DNA of 64,000 nt from Mustelus asterias (taxonomy: Eukaryota): NCBI RefSeq assembly GCF_964213995.1, contig NC_135820.1, positions 124,001-188,000 on the forward strand. The letters run 5' to 3'. Of this stretch, positions 13,529 through 59,650 are shown in pieces (position 1 is the stretch's first letter; the number at the start of each line of letters is the position of its first letter). A program made the position numbers and the translations under genes. Below the pieces are notes generated by a model that saw nothing but the letters and a program-made list of their open reading frames with translations, did not search any database and was not told the origin of the DNA.

Positions 13529-13935
13529 GGGAAAATGCTGGAAAATCTCAGCAGGTCTGGCAGCATCTGTAAGGAAAGAAAAGAGCTGACGTTTCAAGTC
13601 CAGATGACCCTTTGTCAAAGCTAAGAGACGTAGAAAGTGGGAGATATTTATACTGCAGGGGGAGGGAATGAAAGATGAGTCATAGCCACAGAAACCAGGG
13701 GAAAGGCTGCTGATGGTCCCATGGTTTCTGTGGCTATGACTCATCTTTCATTCCCTCCCCCTGCAGTATAAATGTCTCCCACTTTTTATGCCTTTTAGCT
13801 TTGATAAAGGGTCAGCAGGACTCGAAACGTCAGCTCTTTTCTCTCCTTACAGATGCTGCCAGACCAGCTGAGATTTTCCAGCGTTTTCTCTTTTGGTTTC
13901 AGATCCCAGCATCCGCAGTAATTTGCTTTTATTTT
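13529..13935. mobile_element. Palindromic Penelope-derived non-autonomous element (long inverted repeat)
   Basis: 13529-~13697 is the reverse complement of ~13721-13890; contains a degenerate hammerhead-like ttgataaagggtca..gactcgaaacgtc. Confidence 0.75.
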
Positions 13936-15018: not shown

Positions 15019-15999
15019 AGAACATAGAACATAGAAAAACTACAGCACAAACAGGCCCTTCGGCCCACAAGTTGCGCTGGTCATGTCCCTACCTACCTAG
15101 GCCTATATATAGGCTTACCTATAACCCTCAATCCTATTAAGTCCCATGTACTCATCCAGAAGTCTCTTAAAAGACCCTATCGAGTTTGCCTCCACCACCA
15201 TTGACGGCAGCCGATTCCACTCACCCACCACCCTCTGAGTGAAAAACTTACCCCTGACATCTCCTCTGTACCTACTCTCCAGCACCTTAAACCTGTGTCC
15301 TCTTGTATCAGCCATTTCAGCCCTGGGAAAAAGCCTCCGAGAATCCACCCGATCTATACCTCTCAACATCTTGTACACCTCTATCAGGTCACCTCTCATC
15401 CTTCGTCTCTCCAAGGAGAAAAGACCGAGCTCCCTCAGCCTATCCTCATAAGGCATGCCACCCAATCTAGGCAACATCCTTGTAAATCTTCTCTGCACCC
15501 TTTCAATAATTTCTACATCCTTCCTGTAGTGAGGCGACCAGAACTGAGCACAGTACTCTAAGTGGGGTCTGACGAGGGTCTTATAAAGCTGCATCATTAT
15601 CCCCGGACTCCGAAACTCAATCCCTCGATTGATGAAGGCCAGCACACCATATGCCTTCTTAACCACCTCCTCTACCTGCGAGGCCGATTTAAGAGTCCAA
15701 GGTCCTTCTGATCCTCTACACTGCTAAGAGTCTTACCCTTGATATTATACTCCTTCATCCCATTTGACCTGCCAAATGTACCACGACACATTTATCCGGG
15801 TTGAAGTCCATCTGCCACTTCTCCGCCCAGTCTTGCATCCTATCGATGTCACGCTGCAGCTTCTGACATCCCTCCAAACTATCCACAACACCACAAACCT
15901 TTGTGTCATCGGCAAACTTACCAACCCATCCCTCCACTTCCTCATCCAGGTCATTTATGAAAATGACAAACAGCAAGGGTCCCAGAACAGATCCCTGGG
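15019..15999 (-). mobile_element. CR1 LINE 3' part (RT C-terminus and (TTCTATG)n tail)
   Basis: ORFs 15115-15666 and 15755-15976; tail agaacatagaacatag. Confidence 0.93.
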
Positions 16000-16013
16000 T
16001 ACACTATGGGTAC

Positions 16014-16286
16014 TGAACCATAGATGGTTATCACTATGGGTAATTGTACATATGTTACTCTTGTTACTGTTGGGGTTAGGGTTGGGGTGTTCCACCTGTT
16101 GGTATTGTTCTGTGGTACACTCCGGTTGGCTCCGCCGACCTGTAGGAGTATAAAGGTCACTGCACTGCCTAGTGACCCTTTAGTCTGGGATTGTATTGTT
16201 AAGCAGTATGCTCCATTCTTGTTGCTAATAAAAGCCTTTATTTCCCGGATACGATCCAGCCTCCCGAGTGAATTAATCGCGCATCA
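16014..16286 (+). repeat. 5' LTR (first ~5 nt lost), with TATAAAAG at ~16149 and AATAAA at 16227
   Basis: Direct repeat of 20313-20585. Confidence 0.93.
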
Positions 16287-16325
16287 ATTTTATTAGCAAC
16301 AATTTTGGTTGAAGAAAAAAAAACC

Positions 16326-19300
16326 ATGGAGCAAATGTTAAAACCCGATCGGCTTACCTTAGATCCGCGTGCAGCGGGAGCGTCGAACACTTTCGACCAT
16401 TGGTTGAAGTGTTTCCAGGATTATATCGACGCCTCAACAGCAATTCAAAACAACGCCGATAGATTGCGGGTCCTCCATGCAAGGGTAAGCGACACTGTGT
16501 ATGCAACAATCCGTGATGCCCAAGACTACAAAGGGGCCATCGAACTACTTAAGAAGCTGTACAATAAACCGCCAAACGAGATTCATGCTCGGCACCTACT
16601 AGCCACTCGACGGCGGCAGCCCGGCGAAACGACGGGACAGAACCTGCGCGAACTTCAGCAGCTAGCCAGAGCCTGCAATTGCAAGCCAGTGTCGGCTACT
16701 CAATATACTAACGATCTGATCCGAGATGCGTTCGTGGCGGGAATCGGCTCATCCTATATTCGCCTGCGGCTGCTAGAGCAAGGTAACTTAGACCTAGCTA
16801 AGATGGTGGAATTGGCTGATGCGATGGAAACGGCCTCCAGAGGTCTTGAAACTTGCCCCACCGACCACGTGGGAATATTGTGGCAAGTACAGCCACCGAC
16901 TCAACTCTACCCAGCAGCTCCGAGGAACTGCGCGATCGTGCTTTCAACCTCGGACCTGACGGCGGCGGCAGCTCCAGGTGGCCGCGGTGCTATTTCTGTG
17001 GATTGGCAAAGCACCCTCGTCAGCAATGTTCGGCCAGAACGGTATTTTGCTCCGCGTGTGGGAAGAAAGGGCACTATGCTAAAGTGTGCCGAGCTAAACC
17101 ACCTTCGAAGCCAAGCAGTGCGGCGTGTGACTCTCCAGGATCTGTCTCCTCATTTCCGGCTTCATCGAGGTCTTCAACCACGTGCGATTCACGAGCGCCG
17201 CCATTCCTGAGGACGACGATGCAAGACACGTGCGACCTGCGAGTGCCGCCACTTTCAACGCCATCGACCACGTGCGATCCATGGGCACAGCCATTTTGGT
17301 CAACACCGACCGCAGACGACCAGCAGGGGTCACCATCATCGACCATCTCAGCTGCCTGCAGTTGCACTCAAGATTCAACGGTGGCGTCAATCATCCTGGA
17401 CCAGGCCAAGCCTCACAGACTCGACAAGTCCATGATGGACATAGAGGTAAACGGACGCCTGATACATTGTCTGTTTGACAGCGGGAGCACGGAGAGTTCG
17501 GTCTCCGAGTACAGACTGTCAGACAGACAATTTCTATGGCGTCGAGGTCCCGATCTGTTACCGTTCTTGGGAGCTGCGTGGTGAACCTAACGGTGCGGGG
17601 CACAGTTTATGAGAACTTCAGGCTCCTCGTGTTACCGCACCTTTGCGCTCCGATACTCCTGGGACTAGACTTTATGGTCCACCTGAGGAGTGTGACCCTG
17701 CAGTACGATGGGCCACTCCCTCCACTTTCAGTGGGAGAACAGCAGCCTCCAAATTGCCCAGCGCGCTCCACGTGCAGTCTCTCGACACTCAGAATCACCC
17801 CGCCATCTTTATTTGAAAATCTCGTGCCAGGCTGCAAGCCCATCGCAACTAAGAGCAGGCGTTACAGCGCTGAGGATCGGTTCTTTATTCGATCTGAGGT
17901 TCAGCGGCTCCTCAGGGAAGGGATCATTCAACCTAGCACTAGCCCATGGAGAGCACAAGTCGTGGTGGTTAAGACTGGAGACAAGCCCCGGATGGTCACA
18001 GACTATAGTCAGACCATTAATAGGTACACGCAGCTGGACGCGTACCCTCTCCTGCGCATATCTGACATGGTCAACCAGGTTGCGCAGTACCGGGTGTTCT
18101 CCACCATTGACTTGAAGTCAGCCTATCACCAGCTCCCCATTCGCCCAGAGGACCGAAAATATACGGCCTTTGAGGCGGATGGTCGTCTCTACCACTTCTT
18201 AAGGGTCCCCTTTGGCGTCACTAATGGGGTCTCGGTCTTCCAGCGTGCAATAGACCGAATGGTGGACCAAAACGGGCTACGGGCTACCTTCCCGTACCTG
18301 GACAACGTCACTATCTGCGGCCATGACCAGCAGGACCACGATGCCAACCTCCTAAAGTTTTTACGCACTGCGTCTCGCCTGAATCTGACCTATAACGGGG
18401 AGAAGTGTGTATTCAGCAAGCGCCGCCTAGCAATTCTCGGATACGTGGTGGAAAACGGGGTCCTTGGCCCTGATCCAGATCGTATGCGTCCCCTCCTTGA
18501 ACTTCCCCTACCCACTAGTGTCAAAGCACTGAGAAGATGCTTAGGCTTCTTTTCGTATTACGCACAGTGGGTTCCCAATTATGCAGACAAAGCCCGTCCG
18601 CTCATAAAGTCTACCTCTTTTCCCCTGGCAGCAGAGGCTCACTTAGCCTTTGAAGGGATAAAAGCTGACATCGCGAAAGCCACGATGCACGCTGTCGATG
18701 AGTCCATCCCCTTCCAGGTGGAGAGTGATGCATCTGATTTCGCCCTGGCCGCCACACTTAACCAGGCGGGCAGGCCCGTCGCCTTTTTCTCTCGCACCCT
18801 CCAAGGCCCTGAAATTCGGCACTCCACTGTGGAAAAAGAGGCTCAGGCCATTGTGGAGGCCGTCCAGCATTGGCGCCATTACTTGGCTGGAAAACGATTT
18901 ACCCTGCTCACGGACCAGCGGTCCGTGGCCTTCATGTTCAACAACACGTTAAGGGGTAAGATCAAAAATGATAAAATCTTGAGGTGGAGAATCGAACTCT
19001 CCACCTACAACTATGATATCATGTACCGTCCGGGGAAGCTCAATGAGCCTTCAGATGCTCTGTCGCGTGGAACATGTGCCAGTGTGCAGGAGGACCGGCT
19101 ACAGGCCCTCCACAATGATCTCTGCCATCCGGGGATCACTCGGCTCTTCCATTTTGTAAAGGCCCGGAATCTACCCTACTCCGTAGAGGATGTCAGGTCG
19201 ATAACTCGAAGCTGCCAGGTATGTGCTGAATGCAAGCCGCACTTCTACCGACCTGACAGGGCACACCTCATTAAGGCCACTCGCCCTTTTGAAAGACTGA

Positions 19301-20245
19301 GTGTTGATTCCTTCGACAGACCGGAATGTGTACTTCCTCAACGTGGTTGACGAGTACTCCCGATTCCCTTTTGCCATTCCCTGTTCAGACATGACCGCTG
19401 CCACGGTTATCAAAGTTTTGCAGGATCTTTTCACCCTGTTTGGTTACCCCAGTTATATCCACAGTGATAGGGGTTCATCGTTTATGAGTGACGACTTGAG
19501 GCAATACCTGCTCTCTAAAGGGATTGCCTCAAGTAGGACTACGAGTTACAACCCAAGGGGTAACGGGCAGGTCGAAAGAGAAAACGCTACAGTCTGGAAG
19601 GCTGTTTTACTGGCGTTGAGGTCTAAGGGTCTTCCAGTCTCCCGTTGGCAAGAGGTACTTTCTGATGCGCTCCATTCAATCCCGTCCCTCCTGTGTACGG
19701 CAACCAACGCTACCCCTCATGAGCGGATGTTTACCTTCCCTAGGAAGTCTTCCTCTGGGACCTTACTGCCGTCTTGGTTGACGTACTCAGGACCTGTCCT
19801 CCTGCGGTGGCATGTTAGGACCCGCAAGTCCGACCCTTTGGTTGAACAGGTCCATCTCCTCCACGCCAACCCTCAATATGCCTATGTAGCATATCCTGAC
19901 GGGCGAGAGGACACGGTCTCTATTCGAGATCTGGCGCCTGCAGGGGACCTGGAAACCCCCGTCGCTCCCGCATCCTTGGTTAGGGACCCCTTGCCCTTTA
20001 TCTCCCCTCCTGACACGGCGCGGGCAGTATCGGGACCACCACTTAATCCTCTTACTCCCGTGTACAGCTTGCCTGAGTCCAGGAGATTGTCGCCACCTCG
20101 TGGTCCACCCGTCCGTGAGGAGCTGGAGGAGTCACTGGACACCGCCATGGAGAGAGGGTCATCACGGTCACCAGAACCGGCGCTACCGCCAGTGTTGAGG
20201 AGGTCGCAGAGATGGTGCGGCTCTCCAATACGACTGAACTTGTGA
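16326..20245 (+). pseudogene. Gypsy gag-pol, disrupted by about three frameshifts or small deletions (~16980, ~17500, ~19305)
   Basis: ORFs 16305-17210, 16853-17584, 17536-19350 and 19301-20245 carry consecutive domains in different frames. Confidence 0.88.
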
Positions 20246-20307
20246 ATATATGGACAGTTCGTACTGTTTTTTTGCCCCACCGGCCTTTGTTTTAAAGGAG
20301 GGGTGAA

Positions 20308-20585
20308 TGTGGTGAACCATAGATGGTTATCACTATGGGTACTTGTACATATGTTACTCTTGTTACTGTTGGGGTTAGGGTTGGAGTGTTCCACCTGTTG
20401 GTATTGTTCTGTGGTACACTCCGGTTGGCTCCGCCTACCTATAGGAGTATAAAGGTCACTGCACTGCCTAGTGACCCTTTAGTCTGGGATTGTATTGTTA
20501 AGCAGTATGCTCCATTCTTGTTGCTAATAAAAGATTTTATTTCCCGGGTATGATCCAGCCTCCCGAGTGAATTAATCGCGCATCA
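20308..20585 (+). repeat. 3' LTR
   Basis: Starts TG right after the PPT, ends ..GCGCATCA. Confidence 0.95.
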
Positions 20586-21287
20586 GACTTTCTCACCTTC
20601 ACATTTTATAGGTCCTATTCCTTCACATCTCATCCTTTTACTCTTCACATATTTATAGAACGCCTTAGGGTTCTCCTTAATCTTACCTGCCAAGGCCTTC
20701 TCGTGACCCCTTCTGGTTCTCCTAAATTCCTTCTTAAGTCTCTTCCTACAAGCCGTATACTCATCTAGATCCCCATCATCGCCTAGCTCTCTGAATCTTT
20801 CGTCCGCTTTCCTTTTCCTTTTGACTAGGTTCAGCCCAGCTTTCGTGCACCACGGTTCCCGTAACCTATCAAAACCTCCCTGTCTCATCGGAACATTGTC
20901 ATGTAGAACTCCAGACAAACATTCCTTGAAAATCTGCCACCTTACTTCGGTACTTTCCCTTGAGAATACCTCCTTCCAATTTACGCCTCTAATCTCCTGC
21001 CTGATGGCTTCATATTTCCCTTTACTCCAGATAAACACTTTCCTAGCTTGCCTGATCCTATCTCTTTCCAACATTAGCGTAAAGGAGATAAAGTTATGAT
21101 CACTATCCCCAAGATGCTCCCCTACTGAGAGATCCGACACCTGTCCAGGCTCATTAGCCAGTACCAGATCGAGTACAGCCTCTCCTCTTGCAGGTTTATC
21201 CACATGCTGTGTCAGGAAACCCTCCTGAACACACCTCACAAACTCCTCCCCATCCAAACCCCTTACCCTAGGGATATTCCAATCGAT
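20586..21287 (-). mobile_element. CR1 LINE 5' part (end of APE and linker), probably the same insertion as 15019-15999
   Basis: ORF 20583-21335 with LDLVL, GDSDHN, EPW, IKENPKAFY. Confidence 0.85.
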
Positions 21288-22389
21288 GAATTGAATAAAA
21301 AAAGGAATTAAAGGACTAAAGGACGACGAAACCATTGTCAGTTGTTGTAAAAACCCATCTGGTTCACTAACATTCCTTTAGGGAGAGAGCGAAGAAAGGA
21401 CTAATGTCCTTTAGGGCAAGAAAATTGCCATCATTATCTGGTCTGGCCTACATGTGACTCCTGACCATAGCAATGTGGTTGACTCTTGAACGGTCGAATA
21501 AAACACTCAGTTGTATCTAAGGATTACAAGCCCTCAATGGAATGAAACTGGACAGCCCACCCGACATTGAGCTAGACACATGGAATTACATTAGCATTTG
21601 CCCTGTCAGCCCTATAAAGTCCTCCTTACTAAACATCTAGAGGCTAGTGCCAAACTTGGGAGAGCTGTCCCACAGACTAGCCAAGCTGCAGCCTGATATA
21701 ATAATCCTGACGGACTCATACCTCACACACACGGTGCCAGACACCACCACCACCATACCTCGTAGAGTTAGCGGCACACTGGTTGGTATACAGTCGGGAC
21801 AGAGATTCCCTGGAAATCCTCACATCCACTCTGGGCCCCATGAAGTCTCATAGCATCAGGTAAAACATCGGCATGCTGATTACCATGTACCTCCCTCCCG
21901 CTCAGCTGATGATTCAATATTCGTCCACGTTGAACACCACTTTGAGGAAGCACTGAGGGTGGGAAGGGTGCAGCATGTCCTCTGGGTGGGGGGGATTACA
22001 ATGACCATCAACAAGGGTGGCTCGATAGTACCACCACAGACCGAGCTGGCCGGGTCCTAATGGACATAACTGCTAGACTGGGTCTGCAGCAGATGGTGAG
22101 AAAACAAGAGGGAAAAACATACTTGACCTCATCTTTACCAACATGCCTGATGTAGATGCATCTGTCAATGACAGTATCGGGAGAAGTGACCGCAGCTCAG
22201 ACTTTGTGGAGGCAAATTATCATTTTCACAATGAGGATAGCCTCCTTCGTGTGGTGATAAATAGGACAGACTTTGAACAGATCTAGCAACTCAAAGCTGG
22301 ACATCCATGAGGCGCTGTGGACAGAACTGTACTCAACCACAATCTGTAACCTCATGGCCTGACATATCTCCTGATCTCCTTTATTTCTA

Positions 22390-23797
22390 CGAAACCCATC
22401 TCCAAACTCCGTGGCCTGGGCCTCAGCTCCTCCCTCTGCGACTGGATCCTGAACTTCCTAACCCATGGACCACAATCAGAAAGGATAGACAACAACACCT
22501 CCCCCACGATCATCCTCAACACCGGTGCCCCACAGGCTGTGTTATCAGCCCCTCACTATACTCCTTATACACCTGCGACTGTGTGGCCAAATTCCCCTCC
22601 AACTTGACTTTCAAGTTTGCTGACAACACGCACGGTAGCACAGTGGTTAGCACTGCTGCTTCACAGCTCCAGGGTCCAGGGTTCGATTCCCGGCTCGGGT
22701 CACTGTCTGTGTGGAGTTTGCACATTCTCCTCGTGTCTGCGTGGGTTTCCCCCGGGTGCTCCGGTTTCCTCCCACAGTCCAAAGATGTGCGGGTTAGGTT
22801 GATTGGCCAGGTTAAAAATTGCCCCTTAGTGTCCTGAGATGCGTAGGTTAGAGGGATTAGCGGGTAAATATGTGGGGGTAGGGCCTGGGTGGGATTGTGG
22901 TCGGTGCAGACTCGATGGGCCGAATGGCCTCCTTCTGCACTGTGGGATTTCTATGATTTCTATGACCACCGTAGTGGGTCGGATCTCAAACAATAACGAG
23001 ACAGAGTACAGGAATGAGATAGAGAATCTGGTGAACTGGTGCGGCAACAATAATCTCTCCCTCAATGTCATCAAAACGAAGGAGATTGTTATCGACTTCA
23101 GGAAGCTTAAACGAGAACATGCCCCTGTCTACATCAATAAGGATGAAGTAGAAATGGTCAAGAGCTTCAGGTTTTTAGGTGTCCAGATCACCAACAACTT
23201 ATCCTGCTCCCTCCATGCCAACACTATAGTTAAGAAAGCCCACCAACGCCTCTACTTTCTCAGAAGACTAAGGAAATTTGGCATGTCAGCTACGACTCTC
23301 ACCAACTTTTACAGATGCACCATAGAAAGCATTCTTTCTGGTTGTATCACAGCTTGGTATGGCTCCTGCTCTGCCCAAGATCGCAAGAAACTACAAAGGA
23401 TCGTGAATGTAGCCCAATCCATCACCCGAACCAGCCTCCCATCCATTGACTCTGTCTATACTTCCTGCTGCCTCGGCAAAGCAGCCAGCATAATCAAGAA
23501 CCCCACGCATCTCGGGCATTCTCTCTTCCACCTTCTTCCCTCGGGAAAAAGATACAAAAGTCTGAGGTCATGTACCAACTGACTCAAGAACAGCTTCTTC
23601 CCTGCTGCTGTCAGACTTTTGAATGTACTTACCTTGCATTAAGTTGATTTTTCTCTACACCCTAACTATGACTGTAACACTACATTCTGCACTCTCTCCT
23701 TTCCTTCTCTATGAACGGTATGCTCTGTCTGTATAGCGCGCAAGAAACAATACTTTTCACTTTTTCCAATACGTGTGATAATAATAAATCAAATCAA
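22390..23797 (+). mobile_element. Rex1/Babar LINE 3' part interrupted by an HE1 SINE
   Basis: KFAD..|..TTVVG, KAHQRLYFLRRLRKF, FYRCTIESILSGCITAWYG; (ATCAA) tail. Confidence 0.9.
22629..22962 (+). mobile_element. HE1-type tRNA-derived SINE
   Basis: A/B boxes (tagcacagtgg, ggttcgattcc), core gtggagtttgcacattctcc, CR1-like tail ttctatgatttctatg. Confidence 0.9.
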
Positions 23798-24059: not shown

Positions 24060-25150
24060 GCTGGCGGTAACGGTTGTCTACCTGATACGCTGCAGGAAAG
24101 GATGTCCCAAGGCATGGTACATTGGGAAGACCATGCAGAGGCTACGACAACGGATGAATGAACACCACTCGACAATCACCAGGCAGGAGTATTCTCTTCC
24201 TGTCGGGGAACACTTCAAGAAGTTTAACAACACCAGGTTAAAGTCCAACAGGTTTATTTGGTAGCAAAAGCCACACAAGCTTTTGGAGCTCCAAGCCCCT
24301 TCTTCAGGTGAGTGGGAATTCTGATCACAAACAGGGCATATAAAGACACAAACTCAATTTACATGAATAATGGTTGGAATGCGAATACTTACAGCTAATC
24401 AAGTATTTAAGATACAAACAACATGAATGGAGAGAGCATCAAGACAGGCTAAAAAGATGTGTATTGTCTCCAGACAAGACAGCCAGTGAAACTCTGCAGG
24501 TCCACGCAACTGTGGGGATTACAGACAGTGTGACATGAACCCAATATCCTGGTTGAGGCCGTCCTCGTGTGTGCAGAACTTGGCTATCAGTTTCTGCTCA
24601 GCGACTCTGCGCCGTTGTGTGTCGTGAAGGGGAACACTTCAGCGGTTACGGGCATTCAGCCTCTGATCTTCGGGTAAGCGTTCTCCAAGGCGGCCTTCAC
24701 GACACACGACGGCGCAGAGTCGCTGAGCAGAAACTGATCGCCAAGTTCCGCACACACGAGGACGGCCTCAACCGGGATCTTGGGTTCATGTCATACTCTC
24801 TGTAACCCCCACGACTTGCCTGGACTTGCAAAATCTCACTAACTGTCCTGTCTGGAGACAATACACATCTCTTTAACCTGTGCTTAACCCTCTCTTGACT
24901 CACATTGTCTGTACCTTTAAGACTTGATTACCTGTAAAGACTCGCATTCCAACCATTATCTTGTAAATTGAGTTTGTGTTTATATGCCCTGTTTGTGAAC
25001 AGAACTCCCACTCACCTGAAGAAGGGGCTTGGAGCTCCAAAAGCTTGTGTGGCTTTTGCTACCAAATAAACCTGTTGGACTTTAACCTGGTGTTGTGGGA
25101 CTTCTTACTGTGCCCCACCCCAGTCCAACACCAGCATCTCCACATCATGG
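24060..25150 (+). mobile_element. Penelope-like element (GIY-YIG 3' end and pLTR) containing an inverted copy at 24218-24628
   Basis: VVYLIRC..WYIGKT.QRLRQRMNEH GIY-YIG. 24218-24628 is the reverse complement of ~24694-25106 and is flanked by a 13-bp duplication ggggaacacttca. Confidence 0.88.
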
Positions 25151-25489
25151 TAAGCAGCATCACAGATGTCAGACCTCCACCAATTCAATTCACTCCACGT
25201 GATATCTAGAAATGGCTGAAGGCACTGGATGCTGCAAAGGCTATGAGCTCTGACAATATTCCAGCAATAGTACTGATGAATTGTGCTCCAGAACTTTCCG
25301 TATCCCTCGCAAAGCTGTTCTAGTGCAACTACAACACTGGCATGTTCCTGGTACTGTGGTAACTTGCCCAGCTATGTCCTGTACACAAAAAATAGGACAA
25401 ATCTAACCTGACAAATTACTGCCCCGTCAATCCACTCTCGTTCATCGTTAAAGTGATGGAAGAGGTGATCAACAATGTAATCAAGTGGC

Positions 25490-27670
25490 AAGAACAGGAG
25501 GAAGCCAATTCAGCCCCCTCGAGCCTGTTACACAGGAACAGGAGGAGGCCCCATTCAGCCCCTCGAGCCTGTTACACAGGAACAGGAGGAGGCCCCATTC
25601 AGCCCCTCGAGCCTGTTACACAGGAACAGGAGGAGGCCCCATTCAGCCCCTCGAGCCTGTTACACAGGAACAGGAGGAGGCCCCATTCAGCCCCTCGAGC
25701 CTGTTACACAGGAACAGGAGGAGGCCCCATTCAGCCCCTCGAGCCTGTTACACAGGAACAGGAGGAGGCCCCATTCAGCCCCTCGAGCCTGTTACACAGG
25801 AACAGGAGGAGGCCCCATTCAGCCCCTCGAGCCTGTTACACAGGAACAGGAGGAGGCCCCATTCAGCCCCTCGAGCCTGTTACACAGGAACAGGAGGAGG
25901 CCCCATTCAGCCCCTCGAGCCTGTTACACAGGAACAGGAGGAGGCCCCATTCAGCCCCTCGAGCCTGTTACACAGGAACAGGAGGAGGCCCCATTCAGCA
26001 CCTCGAGCCTGTTACACAGGAACAGGAGGAGGCCCCATTCAGCCCCTCGAGCCTGTTACACAAGAACAGGCGGAGGCCCCATTTAGCCCCTCGAGCCTGT
26101 TACACAGGAACAGGAGGAGGCCCCATTCAACCCCTCGAGCCTGTTACACAGGAACAGGAGGAGGCCCCATTCAGCCCCTCGAGACTGTGACAGAGGAACA
26201 GGCGGAGACCCCATTCAGCCCCTCGAGCCTGTTACACAGGAACAGGAGGAGGCCCCATTCAGCTGCTTTTGAGCCTGTTACACAGGAACAGGAGGAGACC
26301 ACTCAGCCCCCCTCGAGCCTGTTACACAGGAACAGGAGGAGGCCCATTCAGCCCCCCTCGAGCCTGCTACACAGGAACAGGAGGAGGTCCATTCAGCTCC
26401 CCTCGAGCCTACTACACAGGAACAGGAGGAGGCCATTCAGCCCCTCGAGCCTGTTACACAGGAACAGGCGGAGGCCCCATTCAGCACCATTGAGCCTGTT
26501 ACACAGGAACAGGAGGAGGTCCATTCAGCCCCTCGAGCCTGTTACACGGGAACTGGAGGAGGCCCCATTCAGCCCCTCGAGCCTGTTACACAGGACCAGG
26601 AGGAGGATCCATTCAGCCCCATGAGCCTGTTACACAGGGACAGGAGGAGGCCCCATTCAGCCCCTCGAGCCTGTTACACAGGAACAGGAGGAGGCCCCAT
26701 TCAGCCCCCTTCGAGCCGGTTACACAGGAACAGGAGGAGACCCCATTCAGCCTCCCTCGAGCCTGTTACACAGGAACAGGAGGAGGCCATTCAGCCCCTC
26801 GAGCCTGTTACACAGGAACAGGAGGAGGCCCCATTCAGCCCCCTTCGAGCCTGTTACACAGGAACAGGAGGAGACCCCATTCAGCCTCCCTCGAGCCTGT
26901 TACACAGGAACAGGAGGAGGCCATTCAGCCCCTCGAGCCTGTTACACAGGAACAGGAGGAGGCCCCATTCAGCCCCCTTCGAGCCTGTTACACAGGAACA
27001 GGAGGAGGCCCCATTCAGCCCCTCGAGCCTGTTACACAGGGACAGGAGGAGGCCCCATTCAGCCCCTCGAGCCTGTTACACAGGAACAGGAGGAGGCCCC
27101 ATTCAGCCCCCTTCGAGCCTGTTACACAGGAACAGGAGGAGACCCCATTCAGCCTCCCTCGAGCCTGTTACACAGGAACAGGAGGAGGCCATTCAGCCCC
27201 TCAAACCTGTTACACAGGAACAGGAGGAGGCCCCATTCAGCCCCCTTCGAGCCTGTTACACAGGAACAGGAGGAGGCCCCATTCAGCCCCTCGAGCCTGT
27301 TACACAGGAACAGGAGGAGGCCCCATTCAGCCCCCTTCGAGCCTGTTACACAGGAACAGGAGGAGACCCCATTCAGCCTCCCTCGAGCCTGTTACACAGG
27401 AACAGGAGGAGGCCATTCAGCCCCTCGAACCTGTTACACAGGAACAGGAGGAGGCCCCATTCAGCCCCCTTCGAGCCTGTTACACAGGAACAGGAGGAGG
27501 CCATTCAGCCCCTCGAGCCTGTTACACAGGAACAGGAGGAGGCCATTCAGCCCCTCGAGCCTGTTACACAGGAACAGGAGGAGGCCCCATTCAGCCTCCC
27601 TCGAGCCTGTTACACAGGAACAGGAGGAGGCCCCATTCAGCCCCTCGAGCCTGTTACACAGGAACAGGAA
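25490..27670 (+). repeat. 44-bp minisatellite (ACACAGGAACAGGAGGAGGCCCCATTCAGCCCCTCGAGCCTGTT), about 49 copies
   Basis: Direct periodicity; the 44-aa repeat in the ORFs equals three units. Confidence 0.96.
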
Positions 27671-32084: not shown

Positions 32085-33070
32085 TAGAAAGCCACAGCAC
32101 AAACAGGCCCTTCGGCCCACAAGTTGCGCCGATCACAGCCCCACCTCTAGGCCTATCTATAGCCCTCAATCCCATTAAATCCCATGTACTCATCCAGAAG
32201 TCTCTTAAAAGACCCCAACGAGTTTGCCTCCACCACCACCGACGTCAGCCGATTCCACTCACCCACCACCCTCTGAGTGAAAAACTTACCCCTGACATCT
32301 CCTCTGTACCTACCCCCCAGCACCTTAAACCTGTGTCCTCTCGTAGCAACCATTTCAGTCCTTGGAAATAGCCTCTGAGAGTCTACCCTATCCAGACCTC
32401 TCAACATCTTGTAAACCTCTATCAGGTCACCTCTCATCCTTCGTCTCTCCAGGGAGAAGAGACCAAGCTCCCTCAACCTATCCTCATAAGGCATGCCCCC
32501 CAATCCAGGCAACATCCTTGTAAATCTCCTCTGCACCCTTTCAATGGCTTCAACATCTTTCCTGTAATGAGGTGACCAGAACTGCGCGCAGTACTCCAAG
32601 TGGGGTCTAACCAGGGTCCTATAAAGCTGCAGCATTATCTCCCGACTCCTAAACTCAATCCCTCGATTAATGAAGGCTAGTACGCCGTACGCCTTCTTGA
32701 CCGCATCCTCCACCTGCGAGGCCGATTTAAGAGTCCTATGGACCCGGATCCCAAGGTCCTTCTGATCCTCTACACTGCTAAGAATGGTACCCTTCATATT
32801 ATACTGCTGCTTCATCCCATTGGATCTGCCAAAATGGATCACTACACACTTATCCGGGTTGAAGTCCATCTGCCACTTCTCCGCCCAGTCTTGCATTCTA
32901 TCTATGTCTCGCTGCAACTTCTGACATCCCTCCAAACTATCCACAACACCACCTACCTTGGTGTCGTCAGCAAACTTACCAACCCATCCCTCCACTTCCT
33001 CATCCAGGTCATTTATGAAAATGACAAACAGCAAGGGTCCCAGAACAGATCCCTGGGGCACACCACTGGT
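32085..33070 (-). mobile_element. 5'-truncated young CR1 LINE
   Basis: Intact RT C-terminal ORF (GVPQGSVLG to EGYR); near-identical to 40369-41206. Confidence 0.93.
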
Positions 33071-33174
33071 CTCCTTCATATGTTCCACATATGAAGGAGA
33101 CTCGTGAGCCAGGACACCAAACCAGCATGGGAGGCGGTGGCAACAGCGTTCAATACCAGCGTATTGCAGAGGTG

Positions 33175-58771: not shown

Positions 58772-59650
58772 GGGGCGATTCTCCCAACCTGCTGCGCTTT
58801 GTTTTAGCACAGCAGCCCGGGAACAATGTACGTCGGCCGATTCACGGGATTCCTGTGAGTGTTCGCACCGTGCTTGCATCTCCCAGGCCCGGATTTCCAG
58901 TGGCGTCTGAAATCAGCTGGGAGGTGGGGCTAGTATTTAAATAGTATTTTACATACTATTTAAATGCTATTAGCAGGCCTGGGACTGAATTCTCCGGGCC
59001 CGCTAGCCTCTCCCACCCCGCCAAAGTGTTTCAGGGGTGGGAGAGGCTAGCAGGGGCAATCAGGGCCACCCAGGGGGTGGGCGGTGGGGGTGGGGGGATG
59101 GTGCCCACCAGGCATGGGGCAGTGCCAAGGGGGCTTTGCTTAGGGGGATTGGTGGAGGTGGGGGATCCCGCTGCCACACTGCATTGGGATCTGGATGGAG
59201 CTGGAGAGAGGCCAGCGATCGCAGCGGGCTGGGGGATGGGGTCTGCCTGTGGGGGGGGGGGGGGGGGGGGGGGGGGGTGGGGGCGGTGGGGGGGATCATC
59301 ACTGCTTGGGGCGGGGGGGGGGGTGGTTCTGGAGATTGGGGTGGTCTGGATGGTGGGGGGGGGTTGATGGTTGGCCTGTGAATGGACGGAGGGGGCTGCG
59401 ATCAGGCCGTGGAGAGTTGGGCGGTCAGAATAGCAGGGGATAATGCGTATGTGCAAAGGATCACTGGTTTCAGCCTCTCCAGTGTGAATAGGTCCCACCC
59501 CCTGAAATCTAATGAGATTCACACTGGTGGCCTCTGCAGTTCACAACATGTGGGGGATTCTAGTCTGATCTCCCACTGAAAAAACCAGCGTGAATTACTC
59601 CAGTTTTCCCACAAATTCGACACTTAGAATTTTTCTGGGAGAATCGCTCC
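58772..59650. mobile_element. GC-rich non-autonomous TIR element (Harbinger-like MITE)
   Basis: TIRs ggggcgattctccca / tgggagaatcgctcc. Confidence 0.75.

Follow-up and report, generated by a model that had tools for sequence, protein, structure and literature searches.

Likely tRNA-independent self-priming in a Ty3/gypsy clade whose putative primer-binding site complements its own poly(A)-signal region

A compact Ty3/gypsy retrotransposon in the genome of Mustelus asterias carries, one base past its 5′ LTR, a putative primer-binding site (PBS) forming the reverse complement of a 15-nt segment of its own LTR (the arm) lying in R and ending at the poly(A) signal. The site is real and clade-wide, and it represents a variant of self-priming not described before in the literature searched. 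Self-priming by the element's own RNA, without a tRNA, is likely, because read-through insertions link this site with R sequence from the element itself. As to the primer itself, the 3′ end of the genomic RNA is slightly favored over a 5′ piece of the Tf1 kind and has about an even chance of being the right choice.

The window is a stretch of 64,000 nt (contig NC_135820.1, positions 124,001 to 188,000), in which the element occupies 16003–20585 on the plus strand (Table 1). Its domain order (gag, then protease, reverse transcriptase (RT), RNase H, and integrase) is that of Ty3/gypsy elements, as are the TG...CA LTRs, the polypurine tract (PPT), and the target duplication; the last is absent from the window copy and present as 5 bp in 68 of 74 scorable copies elsewhere. 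The best solved relative is the Ty3 RT (E 3e-50). The initial annotation had remarked on the lack of a chromodomain, and the integrase open reading frame indeed gives an rve match only, with no chromodomain among the domain accessions listed for its homologs. The two LTRs are 97% alike (8 differences across 273 nt), and the copy is disrupted by frameshifts. CR1-type LINE pieces on the minus strand flank it (15115–16002 and 20586–21377); these are not contiguous, so the left junction, where the start of the 5′ LTR is lost, was removed by deletion. U3 opens with a 30-nt tandem unit (window 16003–16045; L002–L030) whose number differs between copies and between the two LTRs of a copy. Elsewhere the window contains a 44-bp tandem array with long open frames (25401–26600), a long imperfect inverted repeat with arms of ~430 nt (24200–25123), short-range perfect inverted repeats at 13646–13773 (52-bp arms), 59002–59051 (18), and 33069–33101 (15), and, by eye, a tRNA-derived SINE-like insert inside a LINE fragment (22631–22945).

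Table 1. Features of the retrotransposon in the window
Feature	Position	Strand	Remarks
5′ LTR	16003–16286	+	First bases missing, fused to CR1-type LINE; no target duplication
TATA box TATAAA	16149–16154	+	70 nt before the arm here; 68–72 nt in 95 of 97 copies scored
Initiator-like TTAGT/TCAGT	16180–16184	+	~33 nt 3′ of TATA in 7/7 families; predicted start A 16182
GCTCCAT	16210–16216	+	Predicted pairing with gag start ATGGAGC
Arm in R, 5′ copy, TTGTTGCTAATAAAA	16219–16233	+	Terminates in poly(A) signal AATAAA plus one A
Arm-to-LTR-end segment	16234–16286	+	Begins GCC in 92/98 copies; small predicted hairpin frequent
One-base spacer (A)	16287	+	Between LTR-end CA (16285–16286) and paired site
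Putative primer-binding site TTTTATTAGCAACAA	16288–16302	+	Complement of the arm
gag, two CCHC knuckles, then protease start	16326–17581	+	Frameshift-broken; no Pfam match
Protease end, RT (YLDN), RNase H, integrase zinc domain	17479–19350	+	Frame breaks at both ends
Integrase core and tail	19301–20245	+	No chromodomain match
Polypurine tract	20294–20307	+	Ends AA directly before the LTR
3′ LTR (TG...CA)	20308–20585	+	
Arm in R, 3′ copy	20518–20532	+	Favored primer source, on a basis that includes read-through insertions elsewhere in the genome

Arm and site are 100% complementary, as had been noted at the outset, and the copy of the arm in the 3′ LTR matches the site equally well. The position that a TGG tRNA-type PBS would occupy holds no such sequence, the gap to the 5′ LTR end is 1 nt, and the distance from the TATA box agrees with the ~70 nt first given. 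The fold of 16175–16335 has z = -3.72. A genome search with a pattern built on the inner 8 bp of the stem returned 2,872 sites against 117 for a reversed control, which excludes chance. From 100 matches listed among the 2,872, 98 copies were scored; L035 is not an element, and in L043 the element is lost beyond the 8 bases used for selection. The 1-nt spacer is found in 98/98 copies, where the search pattern allowed 0–2, and in 8/8 distant relatives. The stem has sharp edges, being paired at position 16 in 2 copies of the 98 and on the inner side in 1, and the proposal that CCA/TGG extends it is not borne out: the extension is not conserved, with TGG at most 8 nt past the stem in 31/98. All 15 positions pair perfectly in 64/98 copies, with 13 distinct sequences; among 14 5′ copies collected without selection on the arms, 8 are perfect and 6 have one non-Watson-Crick pair.

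Only 24–54 nt separate arm and site, a local fold with a hairpin beside the junction. In many families a small predicted hairpin begins at the G right after the A-run (window 16234–16255; also L062, L065, L067, and L071), beside the putative cut. Upstream, GCTCCAT and the gag start can form a 6-bp helix in 89 of 93 copies; compensated forms of this pairing between R and the gag start (16210–16216 with 16326–16332) occur as GTTCCAT/ATGGAAC, and the predicted pairing could couple translation to priming or packaging.

The site was compared with a partial tRNA set of 53 distinct calls carrying 12 anticodon labels. A match to a host tRNA or tRNA fragment would have counted against the initial reading, and none of these calls fits: the best match to the window arm, the anticodon arm of tRNA-Ile(AAT), agrees at 11/15 positions, 9 of them consecutive, and the other site variants reach 9–11/15 with no common isotype. 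None of the 30 loci inspected, of 35 found in which TAATAAAA precedes a T-arm motif, is a tRNA. PMC6317226 reports half-tRNA-Ile sites in the Bianca lineage of Copia elements, and the 11/15 match with 9 in a row invites the idea that half of a tRNA-Ile(AAU) primes here and that the match to the LTR is secondary. This is very improbable: the LTR arm fits at 15/15, the remaining variants share no isotype, distant relatives carry GAATAAA, GATTAAA, or AGTAAAA, and the inspected loci yield no tRNA. A PBS of the Bianca type, complementary to a 5′ tRNA half whose end lies in the anticodon stem, was likewise not found with the 53 calls, where tRNA-Ile at 11/15 remains the best. The resemblance of the L252 tRNA-Ile(AAT) anticodon arm to the arm plus GCC (16219–16236) is either chance or the trace of an ancestral half-tRNA primer.

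Arm and site change together. The 98 copies sort into seven families by U5, and at the outer pairs 9–15, which the search left unselected, 640 of 686 cells are Watson-Crick, whereas 5,000 rounds of within-family shuffling average 570 and never exceed 597, and slid partners yield 130–287. All four Watson-Crick types occur at pair 9, and G-U is rare (4/490 cells). On a tree of 42 of the 46 F1 copies, built with the arms left out and with no recombination model, five changes in pairs 9–15 map to one and the same inner branch for arm and site, and for a sixth paired change arm and site differ by one chimeric copy. The F1 double changes, several of them transversions, amount to 0.71 per site (5 in 7 sites), compared with 0.67 at gag third positions and 0.26–0.32 elsewhere in the LTR. 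Two independent selected mutations should be slower than this, so the covariation, over few events, is consistent with copying of one side onto the other. The copying is not complete: a mismatch at pair 14 is retained in 11 of 20 F3 copies, F5 and F6 have 13 bp paired, and inner-branch changes in F2, F3, and F7 comprise only 2 joint events as against 6 in the site only, four of these at pair 14. Among the 16 copies with unlike LTR arms, the site agrees with the 3′ copy of the arm in 7 and with the 5′ copy in 7; as no lean toward the 5′ arm is seen, correction at the local hairpin within host DNA was rejected as the source of the covariation. Linkage of the arm with U3 or U5, which bears on whether the primer is a 5′ or a 3′ one, shows short conversion tracts, an intermediate subfamily, and a recurrent single change, and lends weight to neither. 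Five copies (L075, L088, L111, L115, and L103), several with intact target duplications, have two LTRs that differ by subfamily alleles, through either intermolecular transfer or gene conversion.

Insertions in which the site is complementary to the LTR beyond 15 nt were sought with two patterns, covering F1 and F2/F3-type arms; these gave 4 and 14 loci, 18 in all, and none in controls. In each of the 18 the site continues as an inverted copy of the LTR. This copy crosses R, the predicted start, and the TATA box into U3 in 14, and in none of the 18 does it stop at the predicted start. Twelve products terminate where U3 begins, with 5-bp duplications in 11, which indicates that the duplication-bearing ones were made before integration. 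Two others extend beyond the PPT, reaching 805 and 637 nt into integrase before a fold-back returns them to a normal 3′ LTR; one of them, L300, has a target duplication, bringing the total with 5-bp duplications to 12. Chromosomal inversion between the PBS and the 3′ arm was considered and is ruled out for 12 products by their own target duplications. Four products pair over 22–24 nt and then rejoin the leader, gag, or an internal site, from which it follows that the arm side overwrites the site; in L290 the template switch falls at the GCTCCAT register. In three small integrated products with 5-bp duplications (L295, L296, and L302), the left side terminates in U5 and there is one U3 end, the outcome to be expected of minus-strand DNA that folds back on, and copies, its attached primer; the F3 U5 end in their context is a palindrome, TTGATGCGCATCAA, which gives an integrase end in both readings. 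The halves of L304 come from two subfamilies, with the left U3 and early R of one type and the left arm, U5, and the entire inverted half of the other. The left ends of L291 and L301 lie inside the A-run, and five products with two U3 ends have near-identical halves. L297, inserted in the integrase region of another copy, has its left end 6 nt upstream of the predicted start.

These products bear on the alternative that concealing the 5′ poly(A) signal and the gag start is all that the pairing does, with an outside RNA as primer and the inverted insertions formed by plus-strand fold-back. The near-identical halves of the five two-U3-end products fit it, every paired segment includes an AATAAA, ATTAAA, or AGTAAA hexamer, and no such partner lies downstream of the 3′ LTR. 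It would nevertheless leave unexplained the read-through insertions, the fixed 1-nt spacer, and the sharp inner edge (1/98 paired), as well as double transversions at a synonymous rate with few G-U steps; no outside RNA could track the 13 different perfect forms of the site, L304 did not arise by self-copying, and L295, L296, and L302 lack a left U3. We consider masking as the sole function improbable.

More serious is a route resembling that of Tf1, in which the local hairpin would form at the 5′ end, RNase H would cut after the A-run, and the capped piece of ~52 nt would prime, the short strong-stop DNA then moving to the stretch between the signal and the poly(A) site. The covariation and the geometry fit this route equally well, with the arm so close to the site and a hairpin beside the junction; the Tf1 cut falls at the 3′ edge of such a duplex, according to the portions of PMC7175516 consulted, and the A-run ends of L291 and L301 fit a cut 5′ template. 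Against it, none of the 18 read-through products stops at the predicted start, all 14 long ones require a second jump, the left arm of L304 is of the donor type, the transfer homology in L073 would be at most 23 nt, and an unpaired tail of 37 nt would need removal before plus-strand transfer. We regard this route as possible, though somewhat less likely than priming from the 3′ end.

With the 3′ end as primer, the read-through products are single-step outcomes, where a 5′ primer needs a second jump, albeit one that would be efficient, and the choice between the two R copies leans to the 3′ one. The balance is not one-sided: read-through products can also arise when use of a 5′ primer precedes annealing to a 3′ R, cap-stopping products might not integrate, which would explain the count of 0/18, and the local 5′ hairpin, as the predicted minimum-energy fold, must be displaced. 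L304 alone discriminates between the two primers, and an early jump can rescue the 5′ route. A search for RNA starts, RNA ends, and poly(A) junctions in two presumed-RNA contig sets from other organisms and one unlabeled set returned none, and the positions of the cut, the start site, and the poly(A) site are predicted ones.

Under 3′-end priming, the 3′ R copy of the same or a co-packaged RNA would pair with the site, and RNase H or trimming would shorten its 3′ end as far as the last A of the signal, freeing the 3′-OH. RT would then copy U5 and R, and the DNA would transfer to a 3′ R. About 15 nt of primer would be left by RNase H, and plus-strand synthesis would copy this remnant, passing arm mutations to the site. 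A priming RNA that does not act as acceptor would stay long and be read through. Concealment of the 5′ poly(A) signal by the local 5′ hairpin is a putative second role, compatible with 3′ and 5′ priming alike. The initial suggestion of tRNA-independent priming from the R region is thus strengthened, by compensated changes in relatives and by the absence of a fitting tRNA among those compared.

Thirteen related loci were found in metagenome and metagenome-assembled genome (MAG) contigs that appear to hold animal-type DNA; 5 of the 13 were not scorable. All eight with both LTR and leader (44–65% RT identity) have 10–16 perfect pairs (chance per locus from shuffles, ≤0.0016), and the pairing ends at the A-run of the signal and starts one base past the LTR-end CA. 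The poly(A) signals are AATAAA, ATTAAA, or AGTAAA, each matched by its site, and the length of the T-run tracks that of the A-run (three versus four T). Complementarity is thus retained in relatives through compensated changes; its loss without compensation would have told against the initial reading. Members of the clade outside the scoring are L061 and L063, which are cut upstream and whose sites start TTTAAT and TTTTATT, and five loci without a 5′ end (L064, L069, L072, L282, and L307); L306, a decayed copy with LTRs 74% alike, keeps a pairing remnant of only 7 nt. Six outgroup elements with weakly related gag (28–34%) have TGG sites and at most 5 nt of self-complement. In an RT tree of 37 rows, built without named references, the self-complementary elements form one clade (100/99) that includes the deepest row, L071, and the three TGG-site rows with usable RT fall outside it, one on a long branch. 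Bacterial MAG bins (L066–L073 and G001–G005) hold these animal-type retrotransposon contigs, and L066, L067, and L071 are 3.9-kb single-LTR contigs with terminal repeats, either collapsed repeats or circles.

The best named homologs are from sharks and rays, followed by corals, nematodes, flatworms, arthropods, and a sea slug; the paired site was scored in the M. asterias genome and in the metagenome and MAG contigs, the named invertebrates being represented by protein homologs alone. No relative was found in viral contigs. The clade may presumably already bear a name, such as Saci-2-like, MolGy, or Tag; no match to YLDN was found in the supplement files searched for PMC6238403 (five) and PMC2871265 (six).

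In HIV-1, base pairing over AAUAAA near the 5′ end forms a poly(A) hairpin that is present in both LTRs, and a tRNA primes; here, by contrast, the partner lies outside the LTR, at the PBS. Elements of the Mag lineage have two CCHC knuckles in gag and a TGG tRNA primer site. The present element shares the knuckles with Mag/SURL-type elements, and its gag is 28–34% like that of TGG-site elements, but it lacks the TGG primer site, and its RT clade excludes the TGG-PBS elements whose gag is related, so the earlier label "Mag-like" is not supported. By eye, the RT motifs of Mag, SURL, and Gulliver given in the supplement of PMC2871265 also differ. Tf1 and Tf2 of Schizosaccharomyces pombe, Tj1 of S. 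japonicus, and the Tf1/sushi chromoviruses are likewise Ty3/gypsy elements whose PBS complements their own LTR without a tRNA, and in Tf1, as described in extracts of three papers (PMC7175516, PMC4600332, PMC11042837), RNase H cuts at the edge of the duplex and the PBS is copied into the plus strand. The partner here, however, lies ~37 nt inside the transcript, given the predicted start, rather than at its first bases; it ends at the poly(A) signal, 10–16 nt in length, and probably derives from the RNA 3′ end. No chromodomain was found, and by that test the element is not a Tf1/sushi member, though it probably works like one. The plant elements Tcn1 (gypsy) and TAR/Houba/Osr-1 (Copia) are also predicted self-primers, with a PBS complement of at least 10 bp in the LTR, but belong to other lineages, and the sections of PMC6317226 available give neither a link to the poly(A) signal nor read-through evidence for them. 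Skipper of Dictyostelium (polypyrimidine site) and the fungal GalEa (hairpin site) share the lack of a TGG tRNA site; going by parts of PMC5006619 and PMC6934838, Skipper differs in having no complement in its own LTR and GalEa in having its hairpin inside the internal region. The full-text literature searched, largely outside subscription papers, gave no description of any animal gypsy clade, chromoviruses aside, with a self-primer linked to its poly(A) signal.

To our knowledge, self-priming has been shown experimentally for Tf1 only and is treated in animals as a chromovirus trait. The elements described here stand apart as a clade of their own, whose RT has homologs in cartilaginous fishes, corals, nematodes, flatworms, arthropods, and molluscs, and their primer site is tied to the poly(A) signal. 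The full picture, which we put at somewhat under an even chance, is of a pan-animal gypsy clade in which the RNA would close into a ring and use its own 3′ terminus, cleaved at the poly(A) signal, as primer; a single 15-nt segment would then act as poly(A) signal at the 3′ end, be masked at the 5′ end, serve as primer, and specify a site rewritten in each cycle. If true, LTR elements would have a third way of priming, in addition to tRNA and the 5′ piece of Tf1. Such an element would escape both dependence on host tRNA and silencing by tRNA fragments at the PBS, and annotation based on the PBS would overlook it. As fossil intermediates, the integrated read-through products open the origin of the primer to testing, and the ~2,870 genome copies provide a natural mutation series.
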